Shown here one piece after another: positions 38,173 through 44,745 of a DNA stretch of 64,000 bases (position 1 is its first letter; each line of letters begins with the position of its first letter). Below the pieces are notes generated by a model, which was given only the letters and a program-made list of their open reading frames with translations, had not been told where the DNA came from and did no database searches. Origin of the DNA: Gemmatimonadota bacterium (GTDB lineage Bacteria > Latescibacterota > UBA2968 > UBA8231). The DNA is taken from positions 44,334 to 108,333 of the forward strand of contig JAYOYH010000013.1 of assembly GCA_038153405.1 (NCBI GenBank), in the 5' to 3' direction. The position numbers and the translations under genes are program-made.

Positions 38173-38202
38173 AAAATAGGGCTTTCTCTCCGGCTGTGTC
38201 AA
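38173..38202 (-). promoter_or_regulatory. Putative sigma70 promoter (PhyH gene)
   Basis: Minus strand TTGACA-N18-TATTTT. Confidence 0.4.
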
Positions 38203-38220
38203 GCGTTGGAGAATTTGTAA

Positions 38221-38249
38221 TAGACACCCATAACTTTTTTATATATATT
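38221..38249 (+). promoter_or_regulatory. Putative sigma70 promoter of the murG-mraY pair
   Basis: TAGACA-N17-TATATT in an AT-rich divergent intergenic region. Confidence 0.5.
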
Positions 38250-38371
38250 TGCTTACGCAATTTTTGTTAGGGGGTAAATCGCGTTTTTTTACACCTAGTT
38301 AAGACCGCGCCGGTCGCCTGAGCACGAGGCCGATAGATGGCGCGTAAACTCTGGTAAAGCGGCGTTGGGCG

Positions 38372-40396
38372 ATGAGATATCTGCTTACAGGAGGGGGAAC
38401 GGGAGGGCACGTCTATCCGGCGTTGGCCATTGCCGAGGAAATTCGCCGTCGGCAGGGCGATGCCCGATTCCTCTACGTGGGGCGACGCGATAAATTGGAG
38501 GCGTGGGCGGTTCCCGCTCGCGATTTTCCGATCCGCTTTGTGCGCGCGCGTCCCTATCCTCGCTCGCGCTCTGTGCGCGCTCTGGCCGCCTTCGCTCTCG
38601 TTCTGGCCTGGGGTATGGTTCAGAGCGCATTCATTTTGCTGCGCTTTCGCCCTCAGGTCATCATTGGCACCGGTGGCTACGTCAGTGCCCCCATCCTCTT
38701 TGCACACGGCCTGCTACAGAAAATCGGGCTGTCGGGGGCCCGCGTTTTCCTCTATGAGCCCAATGCCCATCCCGGCATGCTCAACCAGGTCGTCGGTCGC
38801 TTGGCCCACCGAGTGGGCATCGCCTTTGAACAGGCCGGCCGCTGGTTTGATATGAAGCGCGTCGCCGTGGTTGGCTATCCAGTGCGAAGCGAATTCCTCG
38901 AACTCGACCGGGACGGGGCGCGCGCGGCGCTGGGTTTGGATCCACAAGCACAGGTCGTGCTGGTATTTGGCGGGTCCGGCGGGGCGCGCGTCGTCAACGA
39001 GGCGTTGGTCGCGGCGCTGCCCGCTCTGGCCAGTCTAAGCAACCTGTGCGTGCTGCACATCACCGGCCGCTACCGCGGTCCAGACTACGATGCTGTGGCC
39101 GATACGCAGAATGCCGTGGCCCAATTGGCGTTGGCCAACGACGCGGGGTGGTATCGCCCGCTGGAGTACATGGACGATATCCACTTGGCCTACGCCGCGG
39201 CCGACTTGGTCGTATGCAGAGGCGGTGCCGGCACGCTGACGGAGCTGTGCGTGGCGAGAAAGCCCGCGCTTATCGTGCCGCTGGCCACAGCAGCCGAAGA
39301 TCACCAGGCGGCCAATGCGCGAGAAATGGAAAGGCTGGGCGCTGCTCAGGTCATATACCAGCGCGCGCGCTGGGGCGATGGCGGGATGGAAAGCGCGGTC
39401 GACGGTGGGGAGTTGGGACAGCGGTTGCAGGCCCTACTCGGCGACCCGGAGCGTCTCGGCGCCATGGCGCGCGCTGCCTCCAAGCTGCCGCGGCGCGATA
39501 GTTTGGCGCTGATCATGGACGAGATAGACCACTTGGCTACCGAACGCCGCGGCGCGCCGCTCAATCTGGAGTTCCCGCTGCGCCGCAGCGGTCCGCCGGC
39601 CGATGCCAATGCGCTGCTGCGCTGGGCACGGGCTCAGCTGCGCGAGGCGGGCGGCATCGAGGCGATGGCGCCCGGCGATCTGGCTTATCTGCGCTATCAG
39701 GCCGATCGCTTGCTGGTATCGCGCGCCTGGTACGAAGTGCCGCTGGGAAGGCGCAATGTCGGCATCAAGCTGGTCGGTCTGCTGGGCTACGAGGCGCAGC
39801 GGCCGCTGCTGCTGAAGATCTTGCTGGACCGCCTACCGGTTTCTCGCCTGCAGCGCCTGTGTGGAGGAGACTATCAGCACGGCGGCATTGTGCGGCGCAA
39901 CGTCGTCGAATGGGGCATCGGCCAGCTAGGAGCCGGCGATTCGTCCACGCGGGCAGCGCTGGCCAGAGCGCTCGTGGAAGATCCCTATTTCGAAGTGCGC
40001 GCGGCCTCGGCGCGCATCCTCGGCGAAGCAGGTTTTGCCGAAGATGCGGTAGATGCGGCTCTGATGCAGGCGCTTGACGATCGCTCGCCAGATGTCGTGG
40101 TCGCAGCACTTAACGCACTGGGCCAGGTGGGCACGGACAGCCAACTGCTGTCCCGGCTGCGCGGTTTCTATCTACATCCCAATGGGCAGGTTCGCCAGGG
40201 CGTGGTGGGGGCGCTGGCTCGCGGCGTAGAACGCGGGGTCTTTAGCGCCGACGAGGTGGCGCGCGACCTCGATGAGATCATTGCATCGTCGCCCCACTTT
40301 ACGCCGACTTTTGCGCTCAACGAAGCGCTGAGCGCGCTGTCGCAGCAGGTTGGGGCGGGGCGCGAGGGCGGCAGCCGCGACGTGCGCGTCCTATGA
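38372..40396 (+). CDS. murG: MurG-like GT28 GlcNAc transferase fused to a C-terminal HEAT-repeat domain
   Basis: TGGGTGGHVYPALA, GTGGYVS, EPNA.PG, GYPVR, FGGSGGA, CRGGAGTLTE, DHQ..NA; then ~285 extra aa with D.YFEVR.A.A..LG, D.SPDVV.AA..ALG, HPN.QVR..VV.AL. Confidence 0.88.
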   Translation: MRYLLTGGGTGGHVYPALAIAEEIRRRQGDARFLYVGRRDKLEAWAVPARDFPIRFVRARPYPRSRSVRALAAFALVLAWGMVQSAFILLRFRPQVIIGTGGYVSAPILFAHGLLQKIGLSGARVFLYEPNAHPGMLNQVVGRLAHRVGIAFEQAGRWFDMKRVAVVGYPVRSEFLELDRDGARAALGLDPQAQVVLVFGGSGGARVVNEALVAALPALASLSNLCVLHITGRYRGPDYDAVADTQNAVAQLALANDAGWYRPLEYMDDIHLAYAAADLVVCRGGAGTLTELCVARKPALIVPLATAAEDHQAANAREMERLGAAQVIYQRARWGDGGMESAVDGGELGQRLQALLGDPERLGAMARAASKLPRRDSLALIMDEIDHLATERRGAPLNLEFPLRRSGPPADANALLRWARAQLREAGGIEAMAPGDLAYLRYQADRLLVSRAWYEVPLGRRNVGIKLVGLLGYEAQRPLLLKILLDRLPVSRLQRLCGGDYQHGGIVRRNVVEWGIGQLGAGDSSTRAALARALVEDPYFEVRAASARILGEAGFAEDAVDAALMQALDDRSPDVVVAALNALGQVGTDSQLLSRLRGFYLHPNGQVRQGVVGALARGVERGVFSADEVARDLDEIIASSPHFTPTFALNEALSALSQQVGAGREGGSRDVRVL

Positions 40397-41499
40397 TTTA
40401 CTACGTCGGAATCTACCTACAGGAAGTGTTCGCCGCGCTGTCCTTTCTGCGCCTGGTGGATTCCATCAGCTTTCGCGCCCTCTGCGGAGCCATAACCGCC
40501 CTGCTTTTGACGATTTTCTTTGGCGAGCGCGTCATTCTCTATTTTTACCGCCTCGGGCACCGCGATCGGCCGCGCAACTACCTCAACTATTCCTCTGTCG
40601 GCAATCCTTCCAAAACCTACGGCGGTCCGCTGCTGGTTGCGGTTATTCTGATCAGCGTGGTGCTTTGGTGCAAACTGCACACCGGCTTCGTGCTGCTATG
40701 CCTAGGGGGATTGCTGTTTTTTGCCGGATTGGGCTGGGTCGACGACTACTTGAAAGTGCGTCATCGCAGCAGCGATCACGGCCTCTCCGAAACGGCGAAA
40801 TTGGCCCTGCAGGGAGGATATTGTCTGGCCTTTGGGACCGTATACGCCACAGCTGATTTGACGCCGCTGCCGGCCGAGGTCGCCACGCAGCTGTATGTGC
40901 CTTTCCTCAAATACCCGCTAATCGACCTCTCCTGGTTTTACGTTCCCTTTATCGCGTTCACCATTACGGCAATATCTAACTCGGTAAATATCGCCGACGG
41001 CGTCGATGGGTTGGCGGTTGTCCCCACGGCTTTTGTCGTAGCGGTCTTCGGCGTATTTGCCTACATATCCAGCCACGCGCGCTTTGCCGAGTTCCTCATC
41101 TTTCCCTTTATGCCCGGCGTAGGCGAGGTGGCCATTATTTGCTCGATCGTCTTTGGTGCGTGTTTGGGTTTTCTGTGGTTTAATTCGTATCCGGCCAATG
41201 TGATTATGGGCGATACGGGTTCGATGGCGCTCGGCGGTCTGCTCGGCACGGTGGCCGTGTTAGTCAAGCAGGAGTTTCTCTTTTTAATCGTCGGTGGGAT
41301 CTTTGTCGCCGAAGCCCTTTCGGTCATCATCCAGGACAAGATCGGCGTCAAATGGCTGGGGCGGCGTTTCTTTGCGCGCGCACCCATTCATCACCACTTT
41401 CAGCAGCGGGGTCTGGCCGACACTAAGATCGTCATTCGCTTTTGGATCGTAGCGGGTATATTGGCCCTGTGTGGGTTGGCCACGATTAAGATCCGCTAG
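40393..41499 (+). CDS. mraY: Phospho-N-acetylmuramoyl-pentapeptide transferase (divergent)
   Basis: DDYLK, SNSVNIADGVDGL, FLWFN..PA...MGDTGS.ALGG, E.LSV.IQ, APIHHHFQ, KIVIRFWI; ATGA overlap with murG. Confidence 0.92.
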   Translation: MIYYVGIYLQEVFAALSFLRLVDSISFRALCGAITALLLTIFFGERVILYFYRLGHRDRPRNYLNYSSVGNPSKTYGGPLLVAVILISVVLWCKLHTGFVLLCLGGLLFFAGLGWVDDYLKVRHRSSDHGLSETAKLALQGGYCLAFGTVYATADLTPLPAEVATQLYVPFLKYPLIDLSWFYVPFIAFTITAISNSVNIADGVDGLAVVPTAFVVAVFGVFAYISSHARFAEFLIFPFMPGVGEVAIICSIVFGACLGFLWFNSYPANVIMGDTGSMALGGLLGTVAVLVKQEFLFLIVGGIFVAEALSVIIQDKIGVKWLGRRFFARAPIHHHFQQRGLADTKIVIRFWIVAGILALCGLATIKIR

Positions 41500-41986
41500 G
41501 CTGCGCCCCACCCATGAGTGCGAGGGCAAAGACAAAGAGGGACAAGACGAGTGTCGCGGTGCCCGCCGCGACCCAAGTGGGAAGGGGTGGGGTACCCTCG
41601 GCGCCCGCTTCGCGTTGGTAGAGCCTGTATTCGCGCGCGAAGAGGACGTGGGTCGAAACCAGAGATGCGATAAGGGCCACGGTGAGAAGGGCGGCGCTGG
41701 AAGCGCCTGCAGCGAAGGGCGTCGCCATGCTTGCAGCGTACGAAAAGGCGTTGATGCAGAGGGGATATGCGCGTGCGCGAAGGGCGTAGATGACCAAGCC
41801 GAGAGCAAACGAGGCCACCGCCATCGACGAAAGTAGATACAGCGCATCGAGTTCGGTCAGGAGCAGTCCCAGACCACCGGCTACCAGCCAGTGCAGCCAC
41901 ATGCCGCTATAGGCGTAGAGGAACGGCGGTCTGAGCGAAGTCGCGTGTCCCACCAGATGCTGTGAAAACGACAGGTGAGAAGGCAC
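41486..41986 (-). CDS. Hypothetical membrane protein (4-5 TM)
   Basis: Hydrophobic ORF; GGAG RBS before GTG at 41986; sigma70 promoter upstream. Confidence 0.6.
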   Translation of the reverse strand: MPSHLSFSQHLVGHATSLRPPFLYAYSGMWLHWLVAGGLGLLLTELDALYLLSSMAVASFALGLVIYALRARAYPLCINAFSYAASMATPFAAGASSAALLTVALIASLVSTHVLFAREYRLYQREAGAEGTPPLPTWVAAGTATLVLSLFVFALALMGGAQPSGS

Positions 41987-42024
41987 GCGTCGCTCCAAAA
42001 TGGCCAAGAGAAGGGGGGCGGCAA

Positions 42025-42058: not shown

Positions 42059-42628
42059 CTAGGCGGCTACGCGCGGCTGCGGCGCTTCCAATCCGCGCTG
42101 CAGGGCCTGTCGCTCCAGATAGCTAACCAGACGAAAACAGCCCTCGTGGGGGTGGATAAAGGCCAGCGCCAGCGCATGTATGGGGCCGCGTTGGTCGCGC
42201 TTGTAGATGCTGCTTTCGACTATGCGGCATTCGATGTGGTCAAATTCCTTGCGCAGAGCGCGGCGCATGGTCTGCAGCGGATCCGTGCCGAGTGTGCCGG
42301 CGCGCGCGGTGCGGTGCAGGCGTTCGACGCGGCGCAGGACCCATTCTTCTATGAAGGCATCGGGGGCGAATACGTCGATGTGGAGGCGTTCGAACTCGGG
42401 CCGTGCGCGCGTGAACAAACAGGCGCCGCCGCCGCTAATGTTGGTCAGCACGCCCGTGTGCCCTTTTCGTCTGCGCTGGGAGTCTTGCCAGTGCGCCTGG
42501 GCCTTGAGCACCGCGTCTATGCGATGGGCGGCGCGGCGCTGGTCTGCCCGCTGCGGTCGGGCACATCGCAGAGAATCGCCAATGGCTAAGGGGAGAGGCG
42601 GCGCATCTCGCTCGGAAAGGGTATGCAT
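42059..42628 (-). CDS. PilZ-domain (c-di-GMP binding) protein
   Basis: QRRAAHR (RxxxR) and NISGGG (D/NxSxxG) motifs; GAGGA RBS. Confidence 0.7.
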   Translation of the reverse strand: MHTLSERDAPPLPLAIGDSLRCARPQRADQRRAAHRIDAVLKAQAHWQDSQRRRKGHTGVLTNISGGGACLFTRARPEFERLHIDVFAPDAFIEEWVLRRVERLHRTARAGTLGTDPLQTMRRALRKEFDHIECRIVESSIYKRDQRGPIHALALAFIHPHEGCFRLVSYLERQALQRGLEAPQPRVAA

Positions 42629-42726: not shown

Positions 42727-44745
42727 ATGTCGAAAGTTATTGATTTACTTATAGATAAGGTCCATGGTATAGGCGCTAAAAGGGCGGCGGTACTCAATGA
42801 AGCGGGCATTTTCTCGCTCGGCGACCTGCTGTGGTATCGACCGCGCCGCTATGTAGACCGCACCCGCATCGTGCCGATCGGCCGGGCGCCCATTGGCGAG
42901 GAGATAACGCTGATAGGGTTGGTGCGCAGCATGCAATTTATCCCCGGGCGTCGTCCGCGTTTTGTACTGGTCGTCGAAGACGAGACGGACGACATCACCT
43001 GCACCTGGTTTTCTGGTGCACGCTATATGCAGCGCAACTTCAACGAGGGAGATGAACTGGCGCTCAGTGGCAAAGTAGATCTGTTTCAGGGTCGGCGGCA
43101 GATTGTCCATCCCGAGTATGAATTTGTCGCCGCAGCCGGCGAGGGCGACCTGCTGCACACCGGTGGCATCATACCGCTTTACACGTCGAGCGCCGATATG
43201 AAAGAGCGCGGGTTGCGCAGTCGCGCATTTCGCCGCTTGATGCGCGGGGCCTTAGAGGAATTTGCCGAGCAAATCGAAGACGGCCTGCCCCATCCCGTGC
43301 GTTCTCGCCAGCAGCTCATGCCGCTGGCTGATGCCCTGCGCGGTCTCCACTTTCCCCGCGATATGGGCGAAGCAGAACGGGCTCGGCAACGCCTGGCGTT
43401 TGATGAGTTTTTTGATTTGCAGCTGCGTCTAGCTCGCCTGCGCGCGCGCCGTCTGGCCGTCCCGTCGGGCATTGCCTTTCGCCCAAGTCAGGAGCGAATA
43501 CCGCAGCTGCTCGCTTCGCTGCCGTTTGCTCTGACGGCCGCGCAGCAGCGCGTAGTGGACGAAATCGCGGCCGATATGCAGCAACCGCACCCGATGAATC
43601 GCCTGGTGCAGGGCGATGTGGGGTCGGGCAAGACGCTGGTCGGCTTGTGCGCCATGCTGACGGCGGTCGAAAATGGCTATCAGTCTGCGCTTATGGCCCC
43701 GACGGAAATTCTCGCCGAGCAGCACTTTCTGACCGTGCGTGGATTGGTCGAACCGCTGGGTTTGCAGGTCGTGCTAGCCAAGGGTAAGCAGCGAGTTAAG
43801 GCGCGGCGTCAGGTGCAGGAAGCGCTGGCAAGTGGTTCGGCGCAAATCGCGGTGGGAACGCATGCGCTCATCCAGACAGAAATCGAGTTTGCCCGGTTGG
43901 GATTGGCCGTCGTCGACGAGCAGCATCGATTCGGGGTCGCTCAGCGCGGCGCTCTGTATAAAAAGGGAGAAAAACCCGACCTGCTCGTCATGACGGCCAC
44001 GCCTATTCCCCGCACGCTGGCGCTGACGCTCTATGGGGATTTGGACGTCTCGCTGATCGACCAACTGCCGCCGGGACGCCAGCCCATTCGCACGGCGCGG
44101 CGGGGCGCCGATCGCCGCGAGGCCATATTTGAATTTGCCGCCGACCAGATGCGTCAGGGGCGCCAGGTCTACGTAGTCTATCCGCTCGTGGAGGAATCGG
44201 AAAAAATGGATCTCAAATCGGCGGTGGAGTCGCACGCGGAATTGGCCGGTGGCATGCTGGGCGAATTTGAAGTAGGACTGTTGCACGGACGCATGGAGGC
44301 CGAGGAGAAAGCCGCCGTAATGGAGGCGTTTAAGGCCAATAGATTACAGGCCCTAGTCAGCACGACGGTTATCGAAGTGGGGGTCGACGTGCCCAATGCC
44401 ACGGTGATGATCGTCGAGCACGCCGAGCGCTTTGGACTGGCGCAGCTGCACCAGCTGCGCGGGCGGGTCGGCCGTGGAACGGCCCAATCGTTCTGCATTC
44501 TAGTCGACTATCACCAGCAGGCGCCAGAGGGTTCCGATGCTGGGGAACGCCTGGAAGCCATGGTGTCGACGCAGGACGGTTTTGTCATTGCCGAAAAGGA
44601 TCTGCAGATTCGCGGCCCCGGCGAGTTCTTTGGCACGCGACAGGCCGGATTGCCGGAGTTTAAGGTCGCCGATATCCTGCGCGACGAAGCGTTGCTCGCG
44701 GCCGCGCGAGTAGAGGCCGAGGCGCTGGTTGGGGAGGAAGCGTGA
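42727..44745 (+). CDS. recG: ATP-dependent DNA helicase RecG
   Basis: Wedge domain (PRRY.D, HPEYE), RLVQGDVGSGKT, APTEILA.QH, DEQHRFG, MTATPIPRTL, QLRGRVGRG, DL.IRGPGE..G.RQ.G. Confidence 0.97.
   Translation: MSKVIDLLIDKVHGIGAKRAAVLNEAGIFSLGDLLWYRPRRYVDRTRIVPIGRAPIGEEITLIGLVRSMQFIPGRRPRFVLVVEDETDDITCTWFSGARYMQRNFNEGDELALSGKVDLFQGRRQIVHPEYEFVAAAGEGDLLHTGGIIPLYTSSADMKERGLRSRAFRRLMRGALEEFAEQIEDGLPHPVRSRQQLMPLADALRGLHFPRDMGEAERARQRLAFDEFFDLQLRLARLRARRLAVPSGIAFRPSQERIPQLLASLPFALTAAQQRVVDEIAADMQQPHPMNRLVQGDVGSGKTLVGLCAMLTAVENGYQSALMAPTEILAEQHFLTVRGLVEPLGLQVVLAKGKQRVKARRQVQEALASGSAQIAVGTHALIQTEIEFARLGLAVVDEQHRFGVAQRGALYKKGEKPDLLVMTATPIPRTLALTLYGDLDVSLIDQLPPGRQPIRTARRGADRREAIFEFAADQMRQGRQVYVVYPLVEESEKMDLKSAVESHAELAGGMLGEFEVGLLHGRMEAEEKAAVMEAFKANRLQALVSTTVIEVGVDVPNATVMIVEHAERFGLAQLHQLRGRVGRGTAQSFCILVDYHQQAPEGSDAGERLEAMVSTQDGFVIAEKDLQIRGPGEFFGTRQAGLPEFKVADILRDEALLAAARVEAEALVGEEA

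Follow-up and report, generated by a model that had tools for sequence, protein, structure and literature searches.

We found that the window, i.e., the whole 64,000-nucleotide stretch of DNA analyzed here, codes for a MurG fused in frame to a C-terminal HEAT-repeat domain, with mraY as the next gene. This MurG–HEAT fusion is a real and conserved variant of the machinery for lipid II synthesis, apparently not yet published, and, as judged from gene contexts and sequence comparisons, its HEAT domain follows a distinct subtype of MraY rather than MurG. A literature search, outside of which subscription papers mostly fell, returned no description of a MurG–HEAT fusion, nor of MraY together with a HEAT repeat. 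Natural chimeras of the pathway include MurE–MurF, MurG–MurC, MurC–Ddl, MurC–MurB, MurD–FtsW, and MraY–MurG, as recounted in parts of two surveys (PMC10214165, PMC6420597). These show the same physical linking of peptidoglycan-precursor enzymes; however, they join two pathway enzymes, whereas the present fusion carries a non-enzymatic HEAT repeat domain. The term "HEAT" is absent from the main text and one supplement of PMC10214165, figures aside, and from the main text of PMC6420597. Describing the fusion thus names a conserved domain family that has so far been annotated merely as "HEAT repeat". It also bears on how MraY, MurG, and MurJ hand on scarce lipid-linked precursors, for which the portions of the sources drawn on here present a complex (PMC2170320) versus affinity gradients (PMC9046198): a natural adaptor hard-wiring these steps would make precursor hand-over directly testable.

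Architecture and integrity of the fusion gene

The features of the locus are collected in Table 1. The fusion ORF has no internal stop codons, and Pfam profiles detect the GT28 N-terminal domain at residues 4–149, the GT28 C-terminal domain at 195–331, and HEAT_2 at 529–616 (three stretches). An AF2 model of the full fusion (46-sequence alignment; pLDDT 86.9, pTM 0.83) displays a GT-B fold that runs until roughly residue 389, then a linker of low confidence at 398–404, and a helical solenoid spanning approximately 412–662; the C-terminal part modeled alone reaches a pLDDT of 92.3 and a pTM of 0.90. The first-pass annotation had described a complete MurG with all its G-loops within a 674-aa frame, which is borne out by the two GT28 domains, the aligned glycine-rich motifs, and the GT-B model. 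It had also noted at least three HEAT repeats; the repeats are indeed there, as the three Pfam stretches attest, with the model counting more of them (about five to six).

Table 1. Positions in the window of the murG–HEAT/mraY pair, its domains, and the upstream promoter match.
Feature	Position	Strand	Remarks
sigma-70-like promoter match	38221..38249	+	10/12; AT-rich intergenic, upstream of the murG–HEAT/mraY pair; consensus match only
murG–HEAT fusion gene	38372..40396	+	674 aa; sole murG match in the source genome (G000)
MurG GT-B domain	38372..39538	+	aa 1–389; distinct subfamily with extra segments
linker	39539..39604	+	aa 390–411; pLDDT <50 at 398–404; independent contigs span the junction
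HEAT-repeat solenoid	39605..40357	+	aa 412–662; alphaRep/PBS-lyase-like, ~5–6 repeats
HEAT family signature	39827..39901	+	aa 486–510; basic/hydrophobic hairpin ending in GGD, then G..RRN of repeat 2
mraY, module subtype	40393..41499	+	368 aa; no other mraY in G000 exceeds the family cut-off

The MurG part retains the glycine-rich motifs, the His of the GGH motif, the Glu of the RxG..T..E motif, and HQ..NA, of which the glycine-rich motifs and the RxG..T..E Glu align with the MurGs of E. coli and P. aeruginosa. The best Foldseek matches of the fusion model are solved MurGs, and with the structures from E. coli (1F0K/1NLM), P. aeruginosa (3S2U), and A. baumannii (7D1I) it shares the GT-B fold, about 30% identity, and the motifs. 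The best NCBIfam match is likewise murG (TIGR01133), at 226.9 bits against a cut-off of 250.25. All 33 carriers compared score below this cut-off; this is a trait of the subfamily, which has a MurG-like role outside the curated equivalog. The subfamily is marked by extra segments after the HxxG motif (~aa 232–260) and as a β-hairpin (aa 331–342), and these insertions persist in split murG / HEAT forms. Compared to known MurGs, the fusion has ~285 extra C-terminal residues in addition to the subfamily insertions, and it is encoded outside the division and cell wall (dcw) cluster, adjoining mraY. Like them, it is the sole MurG in a genome equipped with murB, murC, murD, murE, murF, ftsW, ftsA, and ftsZ. 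By analogy with the family, its N-terminal domain would convert lipid I to lipid II, and we infer that the source genome relies on the fusion as its housekeeping lipid II synthase.

The joining of the two domains is no artefact. A contig from a separate study (X7 record 7) covers 38,691–39,807 with no gap and one substitution, which is synonymous; the X5/X6 contigs (identical figures, perhaps one data set) cover the MurG–linker junction (38,200–39,632), and the X9 contig also spans it (39,456–39,775). In all, two variants were found within the fusion ORF across contigs from other studies, both synonymous. The concern that a stop codon had been lost near ~39,540 is thereby answered, with independent contigs crossing the junction gap-free. 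RNA runs yielded only short fragments. When residues 390–674 were used as a query, 127 proteins were found among the 7990 candidates scored; PF04101 and PF13646 co-occur in all 120 of the homologues among the matches listed, and PF03033 is present in 119 of these 120. As to the taxonomic spread that the first-pass annotation had marked for checking, the domain is found in several lineages of uncultured bacteria. That an assembly error or read-through merged two genes is vanishingly improbable: such a merger might seem to be hinted at by the split forms seen in some lineages, but the junction is crossed by independent contigs, the HEAT domain is present in 73 of the 75 other genomes of the source genome's own family (f1), almost always within a long open frame, and in each of the 24 f1 genomes checked first it lies at the murG locus, with a frameshift in one. 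Relatives with separate genes, named in advance as the refuting case, do occur; however, they are natural split forms rather than signs of an artefact. In genome G018 (L041:8868-10896), a frameshift within the HEAT domain leaves frames of 503 and 227 aa and may be an assembly error.

The HEAT solenoid and its association with an MraY subtype

The C-terminal solenoid is of the alphaRep/PBS-lyase type: it consists of tandem two-helix repeats in a D..VR..AA..LG register, with supporting profile matches, and shares this register and fold with the alphaRep/PBS-lyase repeats (4JW2, 4XL5, 7P0H; CpcE 5N3U). Its model superimposes on alphaRep-type HEAT solenoids with a Z-score of 18.5 and an rmsd of 3.0 over 210 aligned positions. 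We found neither a solved natural homologue of the domain nor an NCBIfam match at 1e-30. Overall identity within the family is ~30%. In a conservation alignment of 192 rows (effective number ~50), the near-invariant residues are concentrated in repeats 1–3. Among these, W453, N462, K466, G505, R509, N510, E541, the aromatic residue 540, and W605 sit at alphaRep positions 18/19/22/23/26; W605 is found family-wide, but is a Gly in the fusion copy of the source genome. In alphaRep these positions vary in libraries and make up the concave binding face in complexes, according to the part of PMC3754942 used here, whereas in the HEAT domain under study they are near-invariant. Since near-invariant residues occupy binding-face positions, a fixed binding site on this face is likely. 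A further difference from alphaRep is an additional hairpin (aa 486–505) inserted between the first and second repeats; its basic and hydrophobic character holds throughout the family, and it may be in contact with the membrane. It forms the first part of the family signature (aa 486–510), a basic/hydrophobic insert ending in GGD that is followed by the repeat-2 motif G..RRN.

The start of mraY overlaps the murG–HEAT stop codon by 4 nt, and the two genes, hereafter the module, are likely translationally coupled. The MraY of the source genome matches TIGR00445 at 287.4 bits (cut-off 192.05) and possesses the catalytic DD, MGD, and HHH motifs; DD and MGD are kept in all 171 module MraYs. By TIGR00445 these belong to the same family as the MraYs of E. 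coli (8G01/8TLU) and A. aeolicus (4J72), yet loop I and TM9b/loop V set them apart as a subtype of their own. The module-specific residues there are D58 in the first cytoplasmic loop and D315, G318, R329, and Q337 in TM9b/loop V, with the other signature residues falling outside the cytoplasmic loops. Portions of two sources describe loop I and TM9b/loop V as cytoplasmic (PMC6606608) and, in a review, propose loop I and the loop V region as partner-binding loops (PMC5039524). A 12-residue signature of the subtype, selected on 59 versus 26 rows that are part of the data later scored, is matched at 9–12 positions in 170 of the 171 MraYs beside HEAT and at 1–3 positions in all 53 canonical MraYs, 27 of which were held out.

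Which of the two enzymes the HEAT domain accompanies is most apparent in the sister family f3. In all three of its genomes, a free HEAT gene precedes mraY, the HEAT gene, one unknown gene, and mraY lying between two L,D-transpeptidase genes; a plain murG is found elsewhere, in the dcw cluster between ftsW and murC. This murG is canonical (310.8 bits in G026), and its product lacks the module insertions (two of the three copies aligned) and groups with canonical MurGs. The f3 MraY, on the other hand, is of the module type, with 11 of the 12 signature residues. An AU test rejects joining it to the canonical MraYs of the same phylum (p = 1.2e-5). A point against this contrast is that a tree in which the f3 MurG neighbors the module MurGs also passes the AU test (p = 0.31). 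Because the f3 HEAT gene stays with a module-type mraY while the plain murG sits in the dcw cluster, these comparisons indicate that the HEAT domain follows the MraY subtype rather than MurG.

Residue-level signals were less discriminating. In a MI-APC covariation analysis of 155 triples (Meff 73), clade markers dominate, and the maximal Z-scores of 5.9 for HEAT–MraY, 6.5 for HEAT–MurG, and 6.0 for MurG–MraY are indistinguishable, as are the distance correlations (0.94–0.96). Within f1, the loop-I GTPTMGG motif of MraY is altered in 62/62 rows and the HEAT motif, of the HGG..RRN type, departs from the QVGFIRRN type in 65/65 rows; the f1 label of loci L048–L111 was assigned by match rank, 21 of them lying within the f1 clade in the tree. 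This joint change is one clade-level event, MurG having clade markers too, and offers only a hint.

Distribution, natural forms, and probable displacement of the dcw genes

In the phylum of the source genome, the HEAT family is present in 82 of 168 genomes: 73/75 in f1 plus the source genome itself, 3/3 in f3, 1/1 in f13, and 4/5 in f14. None of the 83 genomes from ten further families of the phylum yielded a member. A scan of GTDB confirmed 210 relatives, including records titled Myxococcota, delta proteobacterium, and Gemmatimonadales. Among the best 80 of these 210 (related carriers, such that the counts are not independent), 79 are fused, one of them frameshifted, and the other runs into a contig end; mraY follows HEAT in 79/80 loci, the remaining one ending at the contig edge. 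In the phylum of G043 ("delta proteobacterium"; Desulfobacterota by inference), 24 of the 401 genomes sampled carry the domain, all fused, with mraY adjoining in 22. The two carriers with an unlinked mraY (G200 and G239) have a module-type MraY elsewhere, with 11/12 signature residues.

Metagenomes scanned with stand-alone homologues as queries brought up a wider range of forms. Among the best 80 of 303 relatives (non-independent, with some duplicate genome loci), 70 are fused, 7 separate, and 3 cut, and mraY comes next in all 75 loci with room for it, 5/80 ending too soon. The separate forms include murG / HEAT in four loci, followed by mraY in the three with room, HEAT / mraY without murG in two, and one 1.3-kb contig. 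Further, MurJ joins the fusion in two domain orders—MurJ–MurG–HEAT (L278, 3052–6654; P0339) and MurG–MurJ–HEAT (L248, 2617–6717; P0363, P0364)—and HEAT is C-terminal in both, as in MurG–HEAT. P0335 is a MurJ–HEAT protein, possibly truncated, and eight more loci have frames of ~1210–1220 aa with domains unassigned. These come in part from a search of all proteins, which was dominated by generic HEAT proteins and informative for extra fusion types only. A canonical MurJ (PF03023) was not found in the source genome or 24 f1 members, all incomplete genomes, where the best match was weak and flippase-like (E 1.8e-16); across the source genome and 40 relatives, strong PF03023 matches occur in only 2/41.

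The module coincides with gaps in the dcw cluster. Canonically, mraY comes after murF, and murG lies between ftsW and murC. This layout is not seen in the source genome (93% complete), where the fusion is the single murG match and the gene after it the single mraY to pass the cut-off. Its dcw cluster (L131:6928-18935) reads ftsI-like PBP, murE, murF, ftsW, murC, ftsQ-like, ftsA, and ftsZ, with mraY, murD, and murG absent. In the carriers G043 and G042 the order is murF–murD–ftsW–murC, with gaps exactly where mraY and murG belong. Of the genomes compared (33 carriers, 26 non-carriers), every one has a single murG match (59/59) and, at the threshold used, no more than one mraY; in all but one of the non-carriers (25/26), mraY is located ~1.4–3.2 kb upstream of murG on one contig. 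Trees of chosen subsets of 90, 87, 40, and 51 rows (unrooted; built with FastTree or as quick LG+G4 trees, with SH values as the sole support and neither mixture model nor bootstrap) place the module MurGs from all lineages on one side of a branch (SH 99–100), and separate the canonical MraYs from two phyla, as one side of a branch, from the module MraYs (SH 100), the module MraY set splitting when the long f2/f4 rows are included. An AU test rejects joining f1 MurG to the MurGs that dcw clusters encode in its own class (p = 6e-7). From these patterns we infer that the two genes probably spread as a module, with loss of the resident dcw mraY and murG; two essential dcw genes would then be replaceable together by an outside module.

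Other features of these loci vary. In the source genome, murD and murB lie ~10 kb apart on contig C11, outside the dcw cluster, and murD is also missing from the dcw clusters of f3, f4, G044, and G045. The families f2 and f4, of the same class and without the module, possess a third, very divergent MraY-like protein (114–127 bits, under the cut-off), whose genes lie outside the dcw cluster (L138:6861-7904, L139:7809-8858); in the f2 genome inspected, murG is outside it as well. A comparison of 83 loci revealed no neighbor other than mraY that recurs across lineages. L,D-transpeptidases, considered as a core part of the module, were rejected, being found only in f3 and a few f1 loci (8/83). Convergent with mraY in the window (41,486–42,007, − strand) is a gene whose hydrophobic product of 173 aa matches no Pfam profile and has homologues in 60/83 loci; it is followed by a PilZ-like gene (42,059–42,628, − strand; weak match, E 0.001) and recG (42,727–44,745, + strand), which holds the same place in 56/83 loci. 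Neither the hydrophobic protein nor recG in this place was found in the distant lineages (0 loci each).

A putative MraY-docking adaptor and its alternatives

The first-pass annotation had pictured a lipid II synthase scaffolded through protein–protein contact. The fold and conservation fit this picture, but the appendage is not MurG-specific, as it also occurs as a free gene and at the ends of MurG–MurJ fusions. As it tracks the MraY subtype instead, its likely partner is MraY, and not a generic localization factor. We therefore lean, with slightly better than even confidence, towards the HEAT domain being an adaptor that docks on MraY and keeps MurG, as well as MurJ in some lineages, tethered for the hand-over of lipid I. 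The conserved face of repeats 1–3 and the basic hairpin would bind MraY loop I and/or TM9b–loop V at the membrane surface, and the tether would raise the local concentration of MurG for passing on lipid I. The same tether would recruit MurJ in the triple fusions, and the co-adapted murG–HEAT/mraY pair would have spread as a two-gene module, displacing the dcw mraY and murG. In E. coli, the relevant parts of the sources report that MurG and MraY co-precipitate (PMC2170320), which speaks for the adaptor, and that lipid I is passed along by affinity gradients with no tether (PMC9046198, native MS), which speaks against it. Further counterpoints are that adjacency and co-transfer alone would make both genes travel together, and that the pTM of the full-fusion model suggests that HEAT packs against MurG. 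Given this pTM of 0.83 and the module MurG's own insertions, kept in split forms, a HEAT contact with MurG is also plausible. More tentatively, and at rather less than even confidence, the module may be a mobile, self-contained lipid II assembly line, in which HEAT clamps MurG, and sometimes MurJ, onto a co-adapted MraY and channels lipid I and II, and which has time and again taken the place of the essential dcw mraY and murG in different phyla.

Other roles of the domain can be weighed against the same evidence. It might bind a small ligand—the pentapeptide/pyrophosphate head of lipid I/II or UDP-MurNAc-pentapeptide—and serve as a membrane shuttle or feedback sensor for MraY/MurG without stable protein–protein contact. 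The richness of the invariant face in Arg, Lys, Asn, and aromatic residues and the basic and hydrophobic hairpin would suit this, as would invariance in the face of such low overall identity, which befits a chemically fixed ligand. Nevertheless, we regard it as unlikely, since ligand binding alone leaves unexplained both the tie to a single MraY subtype, whose cytoplasmic loops are altered, and the joint f1 change in the HEAT motif and MraY loop I, albeit a single clade-level event. That the domain is a structural subunit or chaperone stabilizing module MraY (folding, dimerization) or MurG, its fusion to MurG being incidental to the operon neighborhood, is quite unlikely: the dominance of the fusion among the best-ranked GTDB (79/80 of 210) and metagenome (70/80 of 303) loci and the MurJ fusions in two domain orders, suggestive of selection for tethering, go against it, notwithstanding the free HEAT gene that f3 keeps before mraY without a module MurG, the split murG / HEAT / mraY forms, and the high pTM of the fusion model. 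HEAT solenoids also serve as general scaffolds, and in model bacteria MreB and Mur ligases are among the associates of MurG, as stated in parts of PMC2170320 and PMC6420597; the domain could accordingly localize MurG to the divisome or elongasome via a third protein (FtsZ/FtsA/MreB or Mur ligases). Yet neighbors other than mraY differ between lineages, non-carrier relatives use plain MurG, and HEAT outlives the loss of its MurG link while remaining with mraY, making this role very unlikely.

An MraY-docking adaptor might make three antibiotic targets available in one stable complex, and the assembly line, if true, offers a naturally stable MraY–MurG(–MurJ) complex for structure determination. 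The MraYs of f1 have Ile, in 62/62 rows, at the residue of the PAxVFMGD motif that we take to be the counterpart of A. aeolicus F262. In the part of PMC6606608 consulted for this, F262 belongs to the uracil pocket, and binding of the substrate or of nucleoside inhibitors may differ in f1 MraY. Finally, at L146:8963-10342 (Myxococcota-titled loci L113, L121, and L127), the module MraY has a Cys-rich insertion of ~90 aa after the fourth predicted membrane segment.
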